Source: Amphibacillus cookii (GTDB lineage Bacteria; Bacillota; Bacilli; Bacillales; Amphibacillaceae). Taken from it: DNA of 24,000 bases. The notes under the pieces are model-generated. The model made no database searches. It was not told the origin of the DNA and saw nothing but the letters and a program-made list of their open reading frames with translations. The stretch is taken from assembly GCF_016908375.1 (NCBI RefSeq), contig NZ_JAFBDS010000001.1, forward strand, positions 381,142-405,141. Reading direction: 5' to 3'. This document shows, piece by piece, positions 6,990 through 22,600 of this stretch (position 1 is its first letter; every line of letters begins with the position of its first letter). The translations under genes were made by a program, and so were the position numbers.

Positions 6990-7051
6990 ACTTTAAACCC
7001 CTCTAATAACTATTTCTTTATATTATAGCAAATTGCCCTATGAAGCGGTAA

Positions 7052-7330
7052 TGATAATTGGATAACCGACTGTAAAACCCCCTCTCAATTAGAAAGTAGA
7101 GATAAATCTATCTAGGTGTAGGTGATAACTGACGCTCATGTCCTGATGCACTCACCATTAGTGGGTGGGTAAGATCGTAGACTAAAACCGCCACATCTTT
7201 AAAAGGATTACAGACTAAGATCGCCACGTCCTGTGGCAACGTCTGCATGACCTACATCCTGTAGGCCCACGTCTGTATGACCTACAATCCTGTAGCCCTC
7301 CGCCCGCGGATTGAAGGTTCGTTTTATTTA
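7052..7330 (+). repeat. Composite structured repeat, copy B (5' module + closing helix + hairpin array)
   Basis: 5' module 7052-7160 (GATAAC boxes at 7061 and 7124). Closing helix GTGGGTGGG 7161-7169 pairs with TCCGCCCGC 7299-7307. One 33-nt AGACTAA..GGATTAC unit (7179-7211). Three hairpins: GCCAC-GUCCU-GTGGC 7223-7237, CCTAC-AUCCU-GTAGG 7251-7265, CTAC-AAUCCU-GTAG 7282-7295. Tail GATTGAAGGTTCGTTTTATTT. Confidence 0.85.
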
Positions 7331-7402: not shown

Positions 7403-7410
7403 TCTGTTAA

Positions 7411-7483
7411 CGCGCTCGGAGGGATTCGAACCCCCGACACATGGCACCGGAAACCATTGCTCTATCCCCTGAGCTACGAGCGC
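7411..7483 (-). tRNA. tRNA-Arg (anticodon CCG)
   Basis: The reverse complement folds as a 73-nt cloverleaf: acceptor GCGCTCG/CGAGCGC, D arm GCTC-AGGGGATA-GAGC, anticodon arm ATGGT-TTCCGGT-GCCAT (anticodon CCG), variable GTGTC, T arm GGGGG-TTCGAAT-CCCTC, discriminator G. No CCA is encoded. Confidence 0.9.
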
Positions 7484-7509
7484 ATAATAGAAACAAAAGG
7501 ACAAGAAAT

Positions 7510-7605: not shown

Positions 7606-7671
7606 AATGAACGAGGTTTAATTTTCCATTTGTTCGGGGAAGATGTAGTTAATAAATGTGTTGAATTGAAC

Positions 7672-7900
7672 GATCACAGATAACCGTCCGTAAAAGGCCC
7701 GCCTCAAAATAGAGAACAGAGCTCATCTATTAAGGCTGGAGATAACGGATACTCTTGTCCTAATTCACTCAATTAACCGCAGTGGGCGGGTAAGATCGTA
7801 GGTCACGTCCTGTGGCAACGTCTGCATCACCTATATCCTGTAGGCCCACGTCTGCATGATCTATGTCCTGTATCCGTCCACGGGTTGAAGGTTCGTTTTA
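7672..7900 (+). repeat. Composite structured repeat, copy C
   Basis: 5' module 7672-7780 (GATAAC at 7679 and 7741). Closing helix 7782-7792 pairs with 7871-7881 (11 bp including two G-U). No AGACTAA unit. Hairpins GTCAC-GUCCU-GTGGC 7802-7816, CCTAT-AUCCU-GTAGG 7830-7844 and a degenerate third (~7858-7875). Tail GGTTGAAGGTTCGTTTTA. Confidence 0.85.
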
Positions 7901-7917
7901 TTTGACCTTTATTGACC
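7901..7917 (-). promoter_or_regulatory. CtsR operator upstream of clpP
   Basis: Reverse complement GGTCAAT-AAA-GGTCAAA matches the CtsR direct repeat (A/G)GTCAAA-NAN-(A/G)GTCAAA with one mismatch. It overlaps candidate -35 hexamers TTGACC at 7902 and 7912 (TTGACC-17-TACTAT possible). Confidence 0.75.
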
Positions 7918-7981
7918 AATTAGGTACTATTAAAGTAATGAAGAAATTTTATTATGTGTATCCTTAAGGAGGAAGATAGTT

Positions 7982-8563
7982 ATGAATTTAATACCTACAG
8001 TTATTGAGCAAACAAATCGAGGAGAGCGTGCATATGACATTTACTCTCGTTTATTAAAAGATCGGATTATTATGTTAGGTAGTGGGATTGATGACAATGT
8101 TGCAAATAGTATTGTCGCTCAACTTTTATTCTTAGAAGCAGAGAGTCCTGACAAAGATATTTCTATTTATATTAATTCACCGGGTGGCTCGATTACAGCT
8201 GGTATGGCGATTTATGATACGGTGCAGTTTATTAAACCTGATGTATCGACGATTTGTGTCGGGATGGCTGCTTCAATGGGTGCCTTTTTACTTGCGGCTG
8301 GAGCACCGGGAAAACGCTATGCTTTGCCAAATAGTGAAGTGATGATTCACCAGCCATTAGGCGGGACGCAAGGCCAAGCCTCAGATATTCAAATTCATGC
8401 TAAACGAATTATAGAAATGCGGGAAAAATTAAACCAAATTCTCTCTGATCGAACTGGTCAACCATTAGAAGTGATCGAAAAAGACACAGACCGTGATAAT
8501 TTCATGTCAGCAGAGGCAGCTAAAAAATATGGTTTAATTGATAAGGTGATGGAGAAGAAATAA
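7982..8563 (+). CDS. clpP: ATP-dependent Clp protease proteolytic subunit
   Basis: 193 aa. N-terminal [26 protein letters not shown], and GMAASMG and MIHQP motifs carrying the catalytic Ser and His. AAGGAGG SD. Confidence 0.97.
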
Positions 8564-9298: not shown

Positions 9299-9430
9299 AT
9301 AATAAAATCCTCCTAAAATATAGTGACCAATGTTTGGTCGGTCATTTTTTTACTGTTCCACTATAACAAACTTAACCCATTAAGCCAAATCAAACCTATT
9401 ATGCACTAAATTATAAAAATATGAACGGAT

Positions 9431-9745
9431 TTATCACAGATAATGGTCAGTAAACAGCCACCACAAAATAGAGAGCAGAGGTCAATCGATTTAGGTGGGC
9501 GATAACAGATGCTAATCTCCTGATTGACTCAACTACCAATTAGTGGGTGAGTAAGATCGTAGACTAAAACCGCCACATTTTTAAAAAGGATTACAGACTA
9601 AGATCGCCACTTCCTTAAGAAGGATTACAGACTAAGACCGCCACGTCCTGTGGCAACGTCTGCATGACCTACATCCTGTAGGCCCACGTCTGCATAACCT
9701 ACATCCTGTAGGCCTCCGCCCACTGATTGAAGTTTCGTTTTCTTT
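9431..9745 (+). repeat. Composite structured repeat, copy D (longest; expanded internal units)
   Basis: 5' module 9431-9540 (TTATC-ACA-GATAA at 9431-9443, second GATAAC at 9501). Closing helix AGTGGGTG 9542-9549 pairs with CGCCCACT 9717-9724. Two 34-nt AGACTAA..GGATTAC units (9561-9594, 9595-9628). Hairpins GCCAC-GUCCU-GTGGC 9640-9654, CCTAC-AUCCU-GTAGG 9668-9682 and 9698-9712. Tail GATTGAAGTTTCGTTTTC. Confidence 0.85.
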
Positions 9746-9838: not shown

Positions 9839-10006
9839 ATGATGGAAAATAACCATAAAGCAAAAGATTCATGTAAATGTGCAAAGCGTGAAAGTGATCA
9901 TCGAGAAGTGGATAAAACATTGTCAAGAGATTACGGACATGAATTTGCTGATGAATTAATATCCCATCCGAGAAGAAATAAGAATCATGCTGAATATAAA
10001 AAGTAA
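9839..10006 (+). CDS. Small basic protein, 55 aa (HEFA-motif paralog 1; possibly YfhD-like sporulation protein)
   Basis: Below the track cutoff. GGAGGTGA SD (9828-9835) then ATG. Product MMENNHKAKDSCKCAKRESDHREVDKTLSRDYGHEFADELISHPRRNKNHAEYKK. Shares the SD context and a [SP]R.[YF].HEFA[DN]E motif with the ORF at 10310. The overlapping - strand track ORF is rejected. Confidence 0.5.
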   Translation: MMENNHKAKDSCKCAKRESDHREVDKTLSRDYGHEFADELISHPRRNKNHAEYKK

Positions 10007-10105: not shown

Positions 10106-10309
10106 AATATGCTTTGCGTGATTGATCGAAGCAAATGCTGGTTAATTATAAAGTGTTACCATGCTAATTGATATCAAGCTTGTTTAAAAAATTAATCTTA
10201 AAATTCTAGATATTGTAAGTCGCTGTTCATGACATGGAAAGTTAACCATATAGCTGTAGGGATAGTCGGTTTATAATGGGACAAACTAATGGTTGTGGAG
10301 GTGATAGTA

Positions 10310-10468
10310 ATGAGTCATGAGAAAAAAGCTGAAAAACGTAAACGTAAAGGGCGCAATGATCATGAAACAATTAAAGAGACATCGCCAAGACGCTTTGATC
10401 ATGAGTTTGCCAATGAACCGATGACACCAGTGGAGCTCGATCGAAATAAAATACCGAAAAAATGCTAA
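10310..10468 (+). CDS. Small basic protein, 52 aa (HEFA-motif paralog 2)
   Basis: Below the track cutoff. GTGGAGGTGAT SD then ATG. Product MSHEKKAEKRKRKGRNDHETIKETSPRRFDHEFANEPMTPVELDRNKIPKKC. A terminator follows directly. Confidence 0.55.
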   Translation: MSHEKKAEKRKRKGRNDHETIKETSPRRFDHEFANEPMTPVELDRNKIPKKC

Positions 10469-11725: not shown

Positions 11726-11744
11726 GGTGAATGTATATTATAAT

Positions 11745-11905
11745 TCCTCGTTAGGTGAGGCTCCTGTGCTGGAGATATGCTACTGCCCAAAAACGTCCAA
11801 AGACGCCAATGGGTCAACAGAGACTATCGAATTAAGGTGGTTTTTAATGTAGCTGGACTTGATCCTATGCCGCACAGTGCTAAAGCTCTACGAATGGAGG
11901 CGATC
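11745..11905 (+). promoter_or_regulatory. M-box (ykoK leader) magnesium riboswitch aptamer
   Basis: TCCTCGTTAGGTGAGGCTCCTGT...GCTACTGCCCAAAAACGTCCAAAGACGCCAATGGGTCAACAG...CACAGTGCTAAAGCTCTACGAATGGAGG matches the recalled conserved M-box blocks (GUUAGGUGAGGCUCCUG, CUGCCCAAAAAUGUC.AAAGACGCCAAUGGGU, AGUGC.AAAGCUCUACGA). It lies upstream of mgtE, as in B. subtilis. Confidence 0.85.
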
Positions 11906-11935
11906 AGGTTATTTGGGATGCACTTAAATAATTAA

Positions 11936-12135: not shown

Positions 12136-13497
12136 ATGGTCAAGTTTGAAGAATTAAATCGAGAAGATTATGCAACTGATGTGCTACATTATTTAAAAAA
12201 AGAAAATAAAAATAAATTTAGAGAACTTTTTTTGGAACTCCATCCAACGAATCAACTTGATATTTTTGTTCAGTTGAATCGTCAATTGCGAGATCGTTTG
12301 TATGTATTAATTTCAGGTGAAGAATTTGCTGAATTATTTGAAGGACTAGATTTAGAAAGACAAAAACAAATCATCTTAGAATTAGATGAAGCATATATTG
12401 CTGAACTATTTAATGCCATTCCTACTGATGAAGTAGCTGATTTACTCGCTGAATTAGAAACTTTTGAAGCGAGTAAAATATTGAATTCAATGGATAAAGA
12501 GCGTGCGATTATTATTCGTGAATTATTAAGTTATCCTATTGAAACAGCTGGTGGGATCATGGCGAAAGAATTCGTCACGATAAAGTCTACTGACAAAGTC
12601 AGTGAGGTTATTGATAATTTGAGATTTTCAGCACCTGATGCAGAAACGATATACTACTTATATGTGCTCGACCAAAAGTCAAGACTTGTAGGTGTATTAT
12701 CCTTGCGGGATTTAATTATAGCACCGGCGTTTGAAACGGTTGAAAATATTATGGGAACAGATATTGTTACCGTCACAACAGATATGGATCAAGAAGATGT
12801 TGCGAAGCTGATGAAACGTTATGACTTTTTGGCTGTCCCAGTTGTTACGAAAGAAGATGTCTTAACCGGTATTATTACCGTTGACGATGTTATGCAAGTA
12901 ATGGATGAGGAAGTTACAGAAGACTTTGATGAATTTATCGCAGCTAAAGGGGCGATTGACATTAATATAAGTTCTTTTCAAGCAGCGAAAAAACGTGCGC
13001 CATGGATTGTTATGTTGATATTTTTTGGTTTTATTACCGGTGGTGTGATCAATTCATTTGAAGAGTCCTTAGAGCAGGTTGTCATCCTTGCCGCTTTTAT
13101 TCCTTTAATCATGGATTCAGCAGGAAATGCAGGAACACAATCATTAGCGGTTGTTGTACGTGCAATTGCGACAGATTCCTTTGAAAAGAAAGGTTTATTA
13201 CATGCTGTTAAGCGAGAATTTGGGACAGGTATTATGCTTGGTGTTATTACTGGAGTTGTATTATTGATTTTAGTTCCGATAGTGTATGGCAATTTTGCAT
13301 TATCTTTTATTGTTGCTGCCTCACTATTTTTAACATTAAGTTTCTCTACAGTGATTGGTGCTATTGTTCCAGTTGTCATTAATAAATTGAAATTAGATCC
13401 GGCGATTGCTTCAGGTCCATTTATTACGACCGTTAATGATATTCTAGGATTAATTATTTATTTTACTATAGCGACGACATTTATCGCTTATTTATAA
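12136..13497 (+). CDS. mgtE: Magnesium transporter MgtE
   Basis: 453 aa. N-terminal MgtE_N helical domain, tandem CBS domains (VGVLSLRDLI, TGIITVDDVM), and a C-terminal 5-TM domain with PLIMDSAGNAGTQS and ASGPFITTVNDILGL. GAGGAGG SD. Confidence 0.95.
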   Translation: MVKFEELNREDYATDVLHYLKKENKNKFRELFLELHPTNQLDIFVQLNRQLRDRLYVLISGEEFAELFEGLDLERQKQIILELDEAYIAELFNAIPTDEVADLLAELETFEASKILNSMDKERAIIIRELLSYPIETAGGIMAKEFVTIKSTDKVSEVIDNLRFSAPDAETIYYLYVLDQKSRLVGVLSLRDLIIAPAFETVENIMGTDIVTVTTDMDQEDVAKLMKRYDFLAVPVVTKEDVLTGIITVDDVMQVMDEEVTEDFDEFIAAKGAIDINISSFQAAKKRAPWIVMLIFFGFITGGVINSFEESLEQVVILAAFIPLIMDSAGNAGTQSLAVVVRAIATDSFEKKGLLHAVKREFGTGIMLGVITGVVLLILVPIVYGNFALSFIVAASLFLTLSFSTVIGAIVPVVINKLKLDPAIASGPFITTVNDILGLIIYFTIATTFIAYL

Positions 13498-14952: not shown

Positions 14953-15397
14953 AGCCACTTTTAACAGCGTAATATTAAAAAAAAAGCAATAAAGTGGTTT
15001 TTACTAATCATGCACCGAATTGGAAAATAATATAATTTTGTGTAAAAATTATTCACTCTAGACTTGCTTTTTCTGTAATTGATCCTTAGCTTGACGGCTA
15101 TGGGGATGGGTTTCAGCTAACTTGAGTCGCACACTCCTCAAGTGGATCTTCAGCTCATGCTATTCCCGAAGAAGTCTCACCCCTTGCTCTTATCTCCACA
15201 TAGACTGAGGGTTCATACTGAATGCGTAAGCCCAACCGCACGAAATAAAGTGAAGAAGATGTGACACGACTAGAAATAAGAAGTTTCTTATTCTGAGCCC
15301 CGCCCACTCACTAAAGGAAGGATAATGCGGATTTATAAAATTTTAGTAACAGAAACACATAGAACGCAATTACTTTAAGTGAATTACCATGATTCAA

Positions 15398-15542
15398 CAA
15401 CGGTAGTCTTCAATTCGTGGAGGTTTTCGTCATTCTCCCGCTGATTGGTCGTTGAGTGAATCCGGACATGAGCGTCCGTTAACTCCCGCTTAAGTGGGTG
15501 AATTCTACGCTCTATTTTGTTACAGACAGTTATCTGTGATAA
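15398..15542 (-). repeat. Composite structured repeat, copy E (inverted orientation, compact, no hairpin array)
   Basis: Reverse complement TTATCACAGATAACTGTCTGTAAC-AAAATAGAGCGTAGAATTCACCCACTTAAGCGGGAGTTAACGGACGCTCATGTCCGGATTCACTCAACGACCAATCAGCGGGAGAATGACGAAAACCTCCACGAATTGAAGACTACCG aligns with copies A-D. It lacks the C-rich segment and all internal units, as if deleted between CGCCAC repeats. Confidence 0.7.
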
Positions 15543-15715
15543 AAAACAGATTTAGACATAATCTTTGACGATAAAGGGTATGGTAAAGAGAAACGAAATT
15601 AAATGCTATAAAATGATAGCTATACTAAATTATGTTACGATCTATATAAGGGATGTTATCAAGAGCTTAGCTTTTGATAAGGTAGCCTTTCATTTTTACA
15701 GAAGGGGTGTTTAGC

Positions 15716-20285: not shown

Positions 20286-22600
<2,315 letters not shown>

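Follow-up and report, generated by a model that had tools for sequence, protein, structure and literature searches.

The closing helix of hairpin arrays in Amphibacillus is the inner stem of an interspersed repeat resembling bcr1

The 24,000-nt stretch of Amphibacillus DNA analyzed here (the window) contains arrays of small hairpins, three of which (copies B, C, and D) are enclosed by a long-range closing helix, raising the question of what keeps the two distant arms of this helix complementary. A preliminary description noted that the helix differs between the three copies only in wobble-compatible, strand-specific ways and proposed selection on an RNA transcribed in the (+) orientation, as opposed to a purely DNA-level cruciform. 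By direct reading, all of the pairings that it listed match the sequence. In copy B, the 5′ arm GTGGGTGGG (7161–7169, + strand) and the 3′ arm TCCGCCCGC (7299–7307, + strand), the latter followed by the conserved tail GATTGAAGGTTCGTTTTAT, form 9 pairs, 3 of which are wobbles (in order: G7161-C7307, U7162-G7306, three G-C pairs, U7166-G7302, two G-C pairs, and G7169-U7299). Copy C forms 11 pairs between GTGGGCGGGTA (7782–7792) and TATCCGTCCAC (7871–7881), including two G-U pairs (G7786-U7877 and G7790-U7873), and copy D forms 8 pairs between AGTGGGTG (9542–9549) and CGCCCACT (9717–9724), running from A9542-U9724 to G9549-C9717. The three varying columns likewise read as described for B, C, and D, respectively: U-G, U-A, and U-A in column 2; G-C, G-U, and G-C in column 5; and U-G, C-G, and U-G in column 6. 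The statement that the shared helix varies only in wobble-compatible ways holds for these three columns but left out what adjoins them, namely, the in-register continuation of copy D beyond position 9549, which is an A9550·C9716 mismatch followed by G9551·U9715, where copies B and C have G-C and then G-U. This A·C, a state of the kind that counts against the (+) strand, lies directly beside the shared helix.

A helix within an interspersed repeat

In the register of the family helix, 7161–7169/7299–7307 forms the inner stem of hairpin 2 (HP2) in a ~160-nt non-coding interspersed repeat. The layout of this repeat is TTTAT, a first hairpin (HP1, ~95 nt), GATTCACTCAAC, HP2, and GATTGAAGGTTCGTTTTAT. 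Its consensus folds into the two hairpins, with HP1 extending from AUCACAGAUAACCGUCCGU to ACGGACGCUAAUGUCCUGAU and HP2 consisting of AACGAAC..AAUCAGUGGGNN, a loop, and NNCCCACUGAUUGAAGGUUCG, followed by UUUUAU. A conserved module of ~120 nt at the 5′ side precedes each array in the window, and an HMM of this module identified 432 copies in the 3.82-Mb Amphibacillus genome (~1 per 9 kb), all of them intergenic. The ends of the element are sharp: sequence information drops to zero just outside TTTAT on the 5′ side and TTTTAT on the 3′ side, with the boundary logos showing TTTAT in 268–278 of 292 copies and TTTTAT in ~230 of 276. Terminal inverted repeats are absent from the consensus, whose 5′ end (TTTATCACAGATAAC) is not the inverted counterpart of its 3′ end (GGTTCGTTTTAT). 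Furthermore, Rfam returned no family for the element itself, even for a plain copy at a permissive threshold. None of the 212 copies with precise boundaries in this genome is stacked in tandem. Three head-to-tail copies with a period of ~153–155 nt were observed in Ornithinibacillus gellani (L104:1238–1606) and in Lysinibacillus parviboronicapiens (L061:4293–4766); in other genera, the element thus stacks on its own TTTAT end.

The loop of HP2 comes in two forms, either 11 nt or an array of 100–400 nt. Of the 276 copies with both module and tail, 160 have a plain loop of ~11 nt (AAGAACGAAAA), and 92 have a hairpin array of at least 100 nt; overall, arrays are found in about 100 copies, i.e., approximately a quarter. 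Within the window, copy A (1342–1479, + strand; covariance-model match of 93.4 bits) consists of an HP1 module and a degenerate HP2 with no array. Copy B (7051–7330, + strand; recovered by repeat search, nhmmer, the covariance model, and RF01690) is a composite repeat with a diverged 5′ end, HP1, HP2 with a hairpin array, and the tail TTTTAT. Copy C (7667–7904, + strand; 103.3 bits, with a full-length covariance-model alignment that spans the array) is a full element whose HP2 loop holds an array of three hairpins, while copy D (9427–9745, + strand; repeat search, covariance model, and RF01690) is a full element with the longest array. Finally, copy E (15394–15546, − strand; 105.7 bits) is plain: HP1 is followed by a short HP2 whose loop is ordinary, and the tail has diverged.

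The arrays themselves correspond to a known family. Rfam cmscan places a Bacillaceae-1 motif (RF01690) with two UCCU-loop hairpins in the HP2 loop of copy B (7199–7265, + strand; 82.2 bits) and a second one in that of copy D (9616–9682, + strand; 80.9 bits), both exceeding the RF01690 gathering score of 35 bits, while the array of copy C reaches only 33.4 bits (contig C1 388928–388985). Across the genome, at least 132 RF01690 matches score over the Rfam threshold, and 106 of 142 Bacillaceae-1 matches (75%) lie a median of 36 nt after a same-strand module. Alignment to the Rfam model revealed the layout of the family, i.e., two UCCU-loop hairpins, the first of which is enclosed by an outer stem, and the loops of 160 such hairpins read GUCCU in 88 cases and AUCCU in 70. 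Thus, the HP2 stem has the appearance of a long-range closing helix because its apical loop has been expanded by one or more Bacillaceae-1 modules.

Several other features of the window were recorded. The interval between copies B and C contains a tRNA-Arg (CCG) gene (7410–7484, − strand). Directly after copy C, the direct repeat TTTGACCTTTATTGACC (7901–7917, + strand) corresponds, on the opposite strand, to a GGTCAA repeat resembling a CtsR operator and overlaps a promoter-like site (7902–7930) upstream of clpP (7982–8563); the flanks with this GGTCAA-like repeat are 100% identical in the sister species, in which the adjoining element is only ~75–80% identical. On the 3′ side of copy D, there are two small paralogue-like ORFs (9839–10006 and 10289–10468, + strand; 55 and 59 aa) that share a ...(D/R)..HEFA(D/N)E... 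stretch. An M-box (magnesium) riboswitch (143 bits) is located at 11740–11906 (+ strand), upstream of the ORF at 12136–13497. A 25-nt similarity to the array start (GGTAAGATCGTAGA) at 22332–22356 falls within the long ORF at 21065–22600, is unaccompanied by the rest of the element, and appears to be a chance match.

Covariation and strand asymmetry of the hairpins

Structural conservation was analyzed with a covariance model (R1) built from 12 plain copies, with the structure set by hand and checked. RNAalifold on these 12 seed copies yielded fragments only (−5 kcal/mol). In a plain HMM alignment of 238 copies, the pairs with the highest mutual information reflected alignment shifts rather than helices, and this alignment was replaced by the covariance-model one. 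Among 118 copies of the Amphibacillus genome, 82.4% of cells were paired versus 79.7% after shuffling, a value reached by 0 of 500 shuffles, and changes on both sides of a pair occurred in 168 cells versus 74 (0 of 500); when the 3′ partner was slid by 1–3 columns as a control, only 35–44% of cells in these copies remained paired. Across genera (59 copies from ~45 species), 79.0% of cells were paired versus 68.9% after shuffling (0 of 500), with both-side changes in 272 versus 94 cells (0 of 500) and a covariation score of 0.226 versus 0.086. Specifically, 92% of the cells of the HP2 inner helix were paired across genera, and 10 of its 11 pairs carried changes on both sides, as exemplified by AAUCAGUGGGAG/CUCCCACUGAUU versus AUUUGUUGGGGG/CCCCCAACAAAU. 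The outer HP2 helix ACGAACC/GGUUCGU (in DNA, ACGAACC/GGTTCGT) is genus-specific and only 41% paired elsewhere. The cross-genus and within-genome covariation together place the HP2 stem under structural selection over the history of the family; the closing helix is real, conserved, and structurally selected on that scale.

The same helix was then scored in array-bearing copies, 69 of which were registered by module-linked anchors that all lie outside the helix, with 10 pairs scored per copy (looser anchors gave false positives and were dropped). The closing helix recurs in every array-bearing copy, with 83% of cells paired and ~17% unpaired; the cells comprise 424 Watson-Crick pairs, 151 G·U, 35 A·C, and 80 other mismatches. 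The two arms of a given copy form 8.33 of the 10 pairs on average, and arms swapped between copies form 8.25 (z ~1.3, not significant). In addition, the consensus of the array subfamily itself has U·G at k = 6 and G·U at k = 9 of the closing helix, and these wobbles are therefore not independent events. Both results, along with the A·C mismatch at the next column of copy D, would be expected if the helix of copies B, C, and D were merely inherited from one array-bearing founder and its wobble-compatible differences were due to chance. Against this explanation, the helix covaries at 10 of 11 pairs across genera as well as across all copies of this genome. As a full explanation, pure inheritance is very improbable and is refuted by the cross-genus covariation, surviving only for the three copies in the window. 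We infer that the differences between B, C, and D combine inherited wobbles of the array subfamily with mild G·T/G·U tolerance and decay, as opposed to selection on a host RNA acting locus by locus.

Strand asymmetry bears on the form in which the hairpins act. Single transitions that depart from a Watson-Crick pair, counted over the whole element in this genome, produced G·U in 323 cases and A·C in 184, a ratio of about 2:1 (p = 7e-10), and the rates at unpaired columns (C>T, 0.099; G>A, 0.121; A>G, 0.038; T>C, 0.038) reveal no bias that explains this excess. Departures from Watson-Crick columns in the array-type closing helix were likewise in favor of G·U (79 versus 37; 69 copies), as were those of HP1 across genera (82 versus 50). 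The small UCCU hairpins showed no such excess (G·U 9 versus A·C 15), and one outer Bacillaceae-1 stem pair is A·C in 71 of 108 copies. Nor did the HP2 inner helix across ~45 species, where 562 cells are Watson-Crick, 13 are G·U, and 20 are A·C. The folding energies of the two strands are mixed as well. When the consensus structure was imposed, the (+) strand folded better in 70 of 106 copies and the (−) strand in 36 (p = 2.5e-4), whereas unconstrained folding favored the (−) strand in 155 of 193 copies, a comparison confounded by U-rich composition (shuffled control, +1.9 kcal/mol). Free folding prefers the (−) strand for copy B and the (+) strand for copy C; comparing the minimum energies of both strands, as the preliminary description suggested, therefore leaves the strand undecided.

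The proposal that G-U states in excess of A-C states imply a selected (+) strand RNA is thus borne out in part. It agrees with the whole-element counts, the closing helix, and the consensus-structure energy, but not with the small hairpins, the cross-genus HP2 helix, or the arms of individual copies, which pair no better with each other than with those of other copies. The (+) strand wobble bias in this genome is modest and inconsistent, and it does not prove an RNA. The accompanying argument against a purely double-stranded cruciform stands, with the qualification that the significant G·U excess speaks only against a symmetric double-stranded form, since a folded single-stranded DNA that tolerates G·T would show the same pattern.

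A role of the hairpins in double-stranded DNA, either as a cruciform or as a protein-binding architectural site of the REP/BIME kind with neither strand special, would account for the almost purely Watson-Crick HP2 helix across genera, because a requirement for pairing on both strands predicts near-symmetric G·U and A·C counts; the small hairpins show the same symmetry. We consider this reading quite improbable, given the G·U excess in HP1 and HP2 of this genome and in HP1 across genera and the strong replication-linked orientation bias (see below). Moreover, the conserved U·G (k = 6) and G·U (k = 9) of the array subfamily turn into two C·A/A·C mismatches on the other strand.

Replication-linked orientation and drift of resident copies

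We found that 361 of the 432 copies (83.6%) run with replication, compared with 76.6% of genes (leading strand defined by GC skew). Between leading-strand genes, 174 copies run with replication and 38 against it. Between lagging-strand genes, where the two influences are opposed, 23 copies run with replication and only 3 with the genes (p = 1e-14 if elements followed genes), which indicates that the orientation of the element is set by the direction of replication and not by the neighboring genes. Since most copies run with replication, their (+) strand usually lies on the lagging-strand template, which is left single during replication.

The genome is 90–92% identical to that of Amphibacillus jilinensis Y1, and orthologous sites were compared with those of one genome from the same genus (the sister species). 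At the loci of copies B, C, and D, the element is present in both species with different interiors: in the sister species, the ortholog of copy B has lost HP1, that of copy C has a plain loop in place of the array, and that of copy D is an internally deleted 41-nt remnant with both ends kept. At 15 orthologous sites, the flanks align tightly; the sister species lacks the element at 2 of them, where a single 5-mer (TTTAC at one, TTGAC at the other) replaces TTTAT-element-TTTAT. As neither is an exact TTTAT, these empty sites do not establish a simple target-site duplication. With occupancy differing at only 2 of the 15 sites, recent mobility is low, and both species carry an element at most sites, often internally rearranged.

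Among the 11 occupied ortholog pairs, divergence was virtually the same in paired (0.212) and unpaired (0.207) columns. Single changes away from Watson-Crick pairs led to G·U in 35 cases, to A·C in 22, and to other mismatches in 38, such that 63% of them broke the pair, and compensatory double changes were rare (3 versus 95 single changes). Resident copies therefore drift almost neutrally, which implies that selection at the level of the family must act on the lineages that propagate.

These observations weigh on the possibility that the element or its array is a functional (+) strand RNA (a small RNA, or a terminator or stabilizer acting in cis within UTRs) whose helix is kept for RNA folding. 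Such a role would fit the G·U excess of the whole element (323:184) and of the closing helix (79:37), the consensus-structure energy (70 versus 36 copies), the terminator-like UUUUAU that follows HP2, and the Rfam classification of Bacillaceae-1 as a small RNA, and there is a precedent in the bcr1–bcr3 repeats, which are reported to be transcribed within UTRs, with bcr3 correlating with mRNA decay rate (PMC3446304). However, no conserved promoter is found, as the sequence upstream of TTTAT carries no information, and despite the resemblance of HP2 and its U-rich end to an intrinsic terminator, a terminator scan of the consensus does not call HP2. The small hairpins (9:15) and the cross-genus HP2 helix (13:20) lack the G·U excess, the element ignores the orientation of neighboring genes (23:3 in lagging-gene regions), and orthologs differ by gain or loss of whole arrays and by internal deletions, with no constraint on the stems of resident copies. 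The combination of replication-linked orientation with equal drift of stems and loops, in particular, points away from an RNA selected by the host at each locus, and we regard a functional RNA as unlikely.

A preference for existing terminators as insertion sites was also considered and rejected, as the 50 nt upstream of the element fold no better than those upstream of other intergenic TTTAT sites (p = 0.17). In a genome from another family of the order, an element copy is followed, ~170 nt further downstream, by a group II intron (L030:1501–1718 and 1892–2448; Rfam D1-D4 and domain V-VI matches). Certain group II introns of bacteria use terminator-like hairpins as homing sites and insert behind them, and by analogy, HP2 and its T-run may serve as a homing site for such an intron.

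Kinship to bcr1 and the Bacillaceae-1 modules

The HP2-plus-tail pattern was found in species-representative genomes of Amphibacillus, Oceanobacillus, Ornithinibacillus, Virgibacillus, Lysinibacillus, Sporosarcina, Neobacillus, Cytobacillus, Paenibacillus, Bacillus mycoides, and Bacillus manliponensis, among others. R1 recovers a full-length, TTTAT-ended element in about 45 Bacillales species, including members of the Bacillus cereus group (B. mycoides, 63 bits; B. manliponensis, 70–90 bits), and the copy number is patchy among genera. A repeat of this kind has been described in the B. cereus group as bcr1, one of the group A BCR repeats (bcr1–bcr3) (Økstad 2004; Klevan 2007; Kristoffersen 2011; summarized in PMC3184786, PMC6542083, PMC6199540). 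The published accounts describe bcr1 as a ~155-bp sequence with two independent stem-loops that show compensatory changes, 5-bp direct repeats/TTTAT, and a suspected mechanism resembling site-specific recombination (PMC3184786, PMC6542083, PMC6199540, PMC3446304). They also characterize it as MITE-like and specific to the cereus group, with 11–130 copies (PMC3184786, PMC6542083, PMC6199540).

The element reported here shares with bcr1 its length (about 155–160 nt), its non-coding nature, intergenic location, and high copy number, the TTTAT ends, the two covarying stem-loops, and possibly a presence or absence that varies between relatives. It differs in being found in Amphibacillus and about 45 Bacillales species, in its ~430 copies, in the Bacillaceae-1 arrays in the loop of the second hairpin, in the Amphibacillus-specific outer HP2 helix, and in its replication-biased orientation, a bias of which we found no report for bcr1. 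Based on the cereus-group copies and on the published description, as distinct from an alignment of consensus sequences, the element fits the same kind of repeat as bcr1 and appears homologous to it. What is modestly new is the very wide distribution of a bcr1-like repeat and its replication-linked orientation.

Comparison with other small repeats narrows the mode of propagation. IS200/IS605-derived and REP/REPIN elements have hairpins near their ends and no terminal inverted repeats and are moved by Y1 (HUH) transposases; their target is short and sequence-specific, and their orientation is tied to replication since the active strand is the lagging-strand template. The element resembles them in its end-proximal hairpins, the lack of inverted repeats, a short target, and replication-tied orientation. 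It differs from them in carrying the same 5-mer at both ends and much longer hairpins, and no Y1 or RAYT gene flanked by matching ends was found in the genome, so that it is at most a putative member of the IS200/IS605 or REP/RAYT groups. As candidate partners, the Y1 transposase genes (C8:3657–4010 and C5:239400–239756) and a TnpB gene (C3:238843–239046) of this genome were rejected, as they have no element-like flanks and thus share no ends with the element, and the Y1 gene profile across relatives fits the distribution of the element only weakly; the search thus yielded no mobilizing enzyme.

Classical MITEs derived from DDE transposons differ from the element, which lacks terminal inverted repeats. 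SPRITE of Streptococcus pneumoniae and Correia/ERIC-type MITEs resemble the element in being small repeats that end in a hairpin and a T-run. Repeats of the SPRITE, Correia, and ERIC types are often co-transcribed with neighboring genes; the element differs from them in showing no preference for sites behind terminators and no orientation preference relative to genes. The 1997 Bacillus subtilis genome paper reportedly described an intergenic repeat of ~190 bp with an RNA-like structure, compensatory changes, an optional insert, and ~10 copies, and R1 has one full-length match in a record titled B. subtilis DE0224.

Bacillaceae-1 was originally described as an RNA motif (Weinberg et al. 2010, PMC2864571). 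The array units match the family at 81–82 bits and follow the same plan of two hairpins and an outer stem, but where Rfam treats the motif as a stand-alone 67-nt small-RNA gene, 75% of the matches here are inserts in the loop of a larger repeat, with arrays gained or lost between orthologous sites and a wobble signature on neither strand. Of 61 genomes sampled throughout the order, 27 contain the motif, some of them in many copies, and its loop often reads UCGU in other genera. An R1-type carrier was absent from the two Bacillaceae-1-rich genomes searched with R1, which suggests that the motif behaves as a module riding on different carriers. A reading of minus-strand arrays as a CsrA sponge, based on their AGGAU/AGGAC loops and perfect UACAGGAUGU, was discarded because GGA is not conserved in other genera, where many minus-strand loops would read ACGAU. 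The genome does contain csrA (contig C1 323824–323982), and the minus strand of the second Bacillaceae-1 hairpin reads CUACAGGAUGUAG, which we take to match the CsrA SELEX consensus. We also observed opposite-strand Bacillaceae-1 pairs 2–30 nt apart in a head-to-head, palindromic arrangement (C5:77979–78114, C5:82410–82545, C13:18892–19027, and C8:162564–162724), in contrast to the usual co-oriented arrays. In addition, nine Bacillaceae-1 matches score an identical 63.2 bits and seven an identical 71.5 bits, on both strands; these are probably identical copies that belong to some larger repeat (an insertion sequence, for example) or to rRNA-operon-adjacent sequence.

Our preferred reading, to which we assign a probability of roughly 0.6, is that the ~430 copies are a relative of bcr1, a mobile repeat with Bacillaceae-1 modules in the loop of HP2, that propagates via a folded single strand. 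The two hairpins would be kept because the element needs them to propagate, and the active form would most likely be the folded single (+) strand; in 84% of copies, this strand is on the lagging-strand template. A mobilizing enzyme would recombine at a TTTAT-like 5-mer, and once inserted, individual copies would drift almost neutrally. The orientation and drift data suggest that the propagating strand is, most simply, DNA on the lagging-strand template; counting against a mobile DNA, the excess of G·U over A·C in this genome and the U-rich sequence that follows HP2 would be compatible with an RNA role as well. A broader generalization is tentative at best, namely, that bcr1-like repeats of Bacillales might form a distinct class of elements moving as single-stranded DNA through the lagging-strand template and a TTTAT-like 5-mer, with Bacillaceae-1 as a cargo or expansion module that hops between carriers and is no gene.

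For the interpretation of such loci, a caution follows: wobble-compatible differences among three copies are not evidence for an RNA gene. An orientation that follows replication and not transcription narrows the search for the mobilizing enzyme. Placing the orphan Rfam family Bacillaceae-1 inside a mobile repeat alters the way in which its many genomic matches should be annotated, and an element of the bcr1 type, confined to the cereus group according to the literature, occurs widely in Bacillales.
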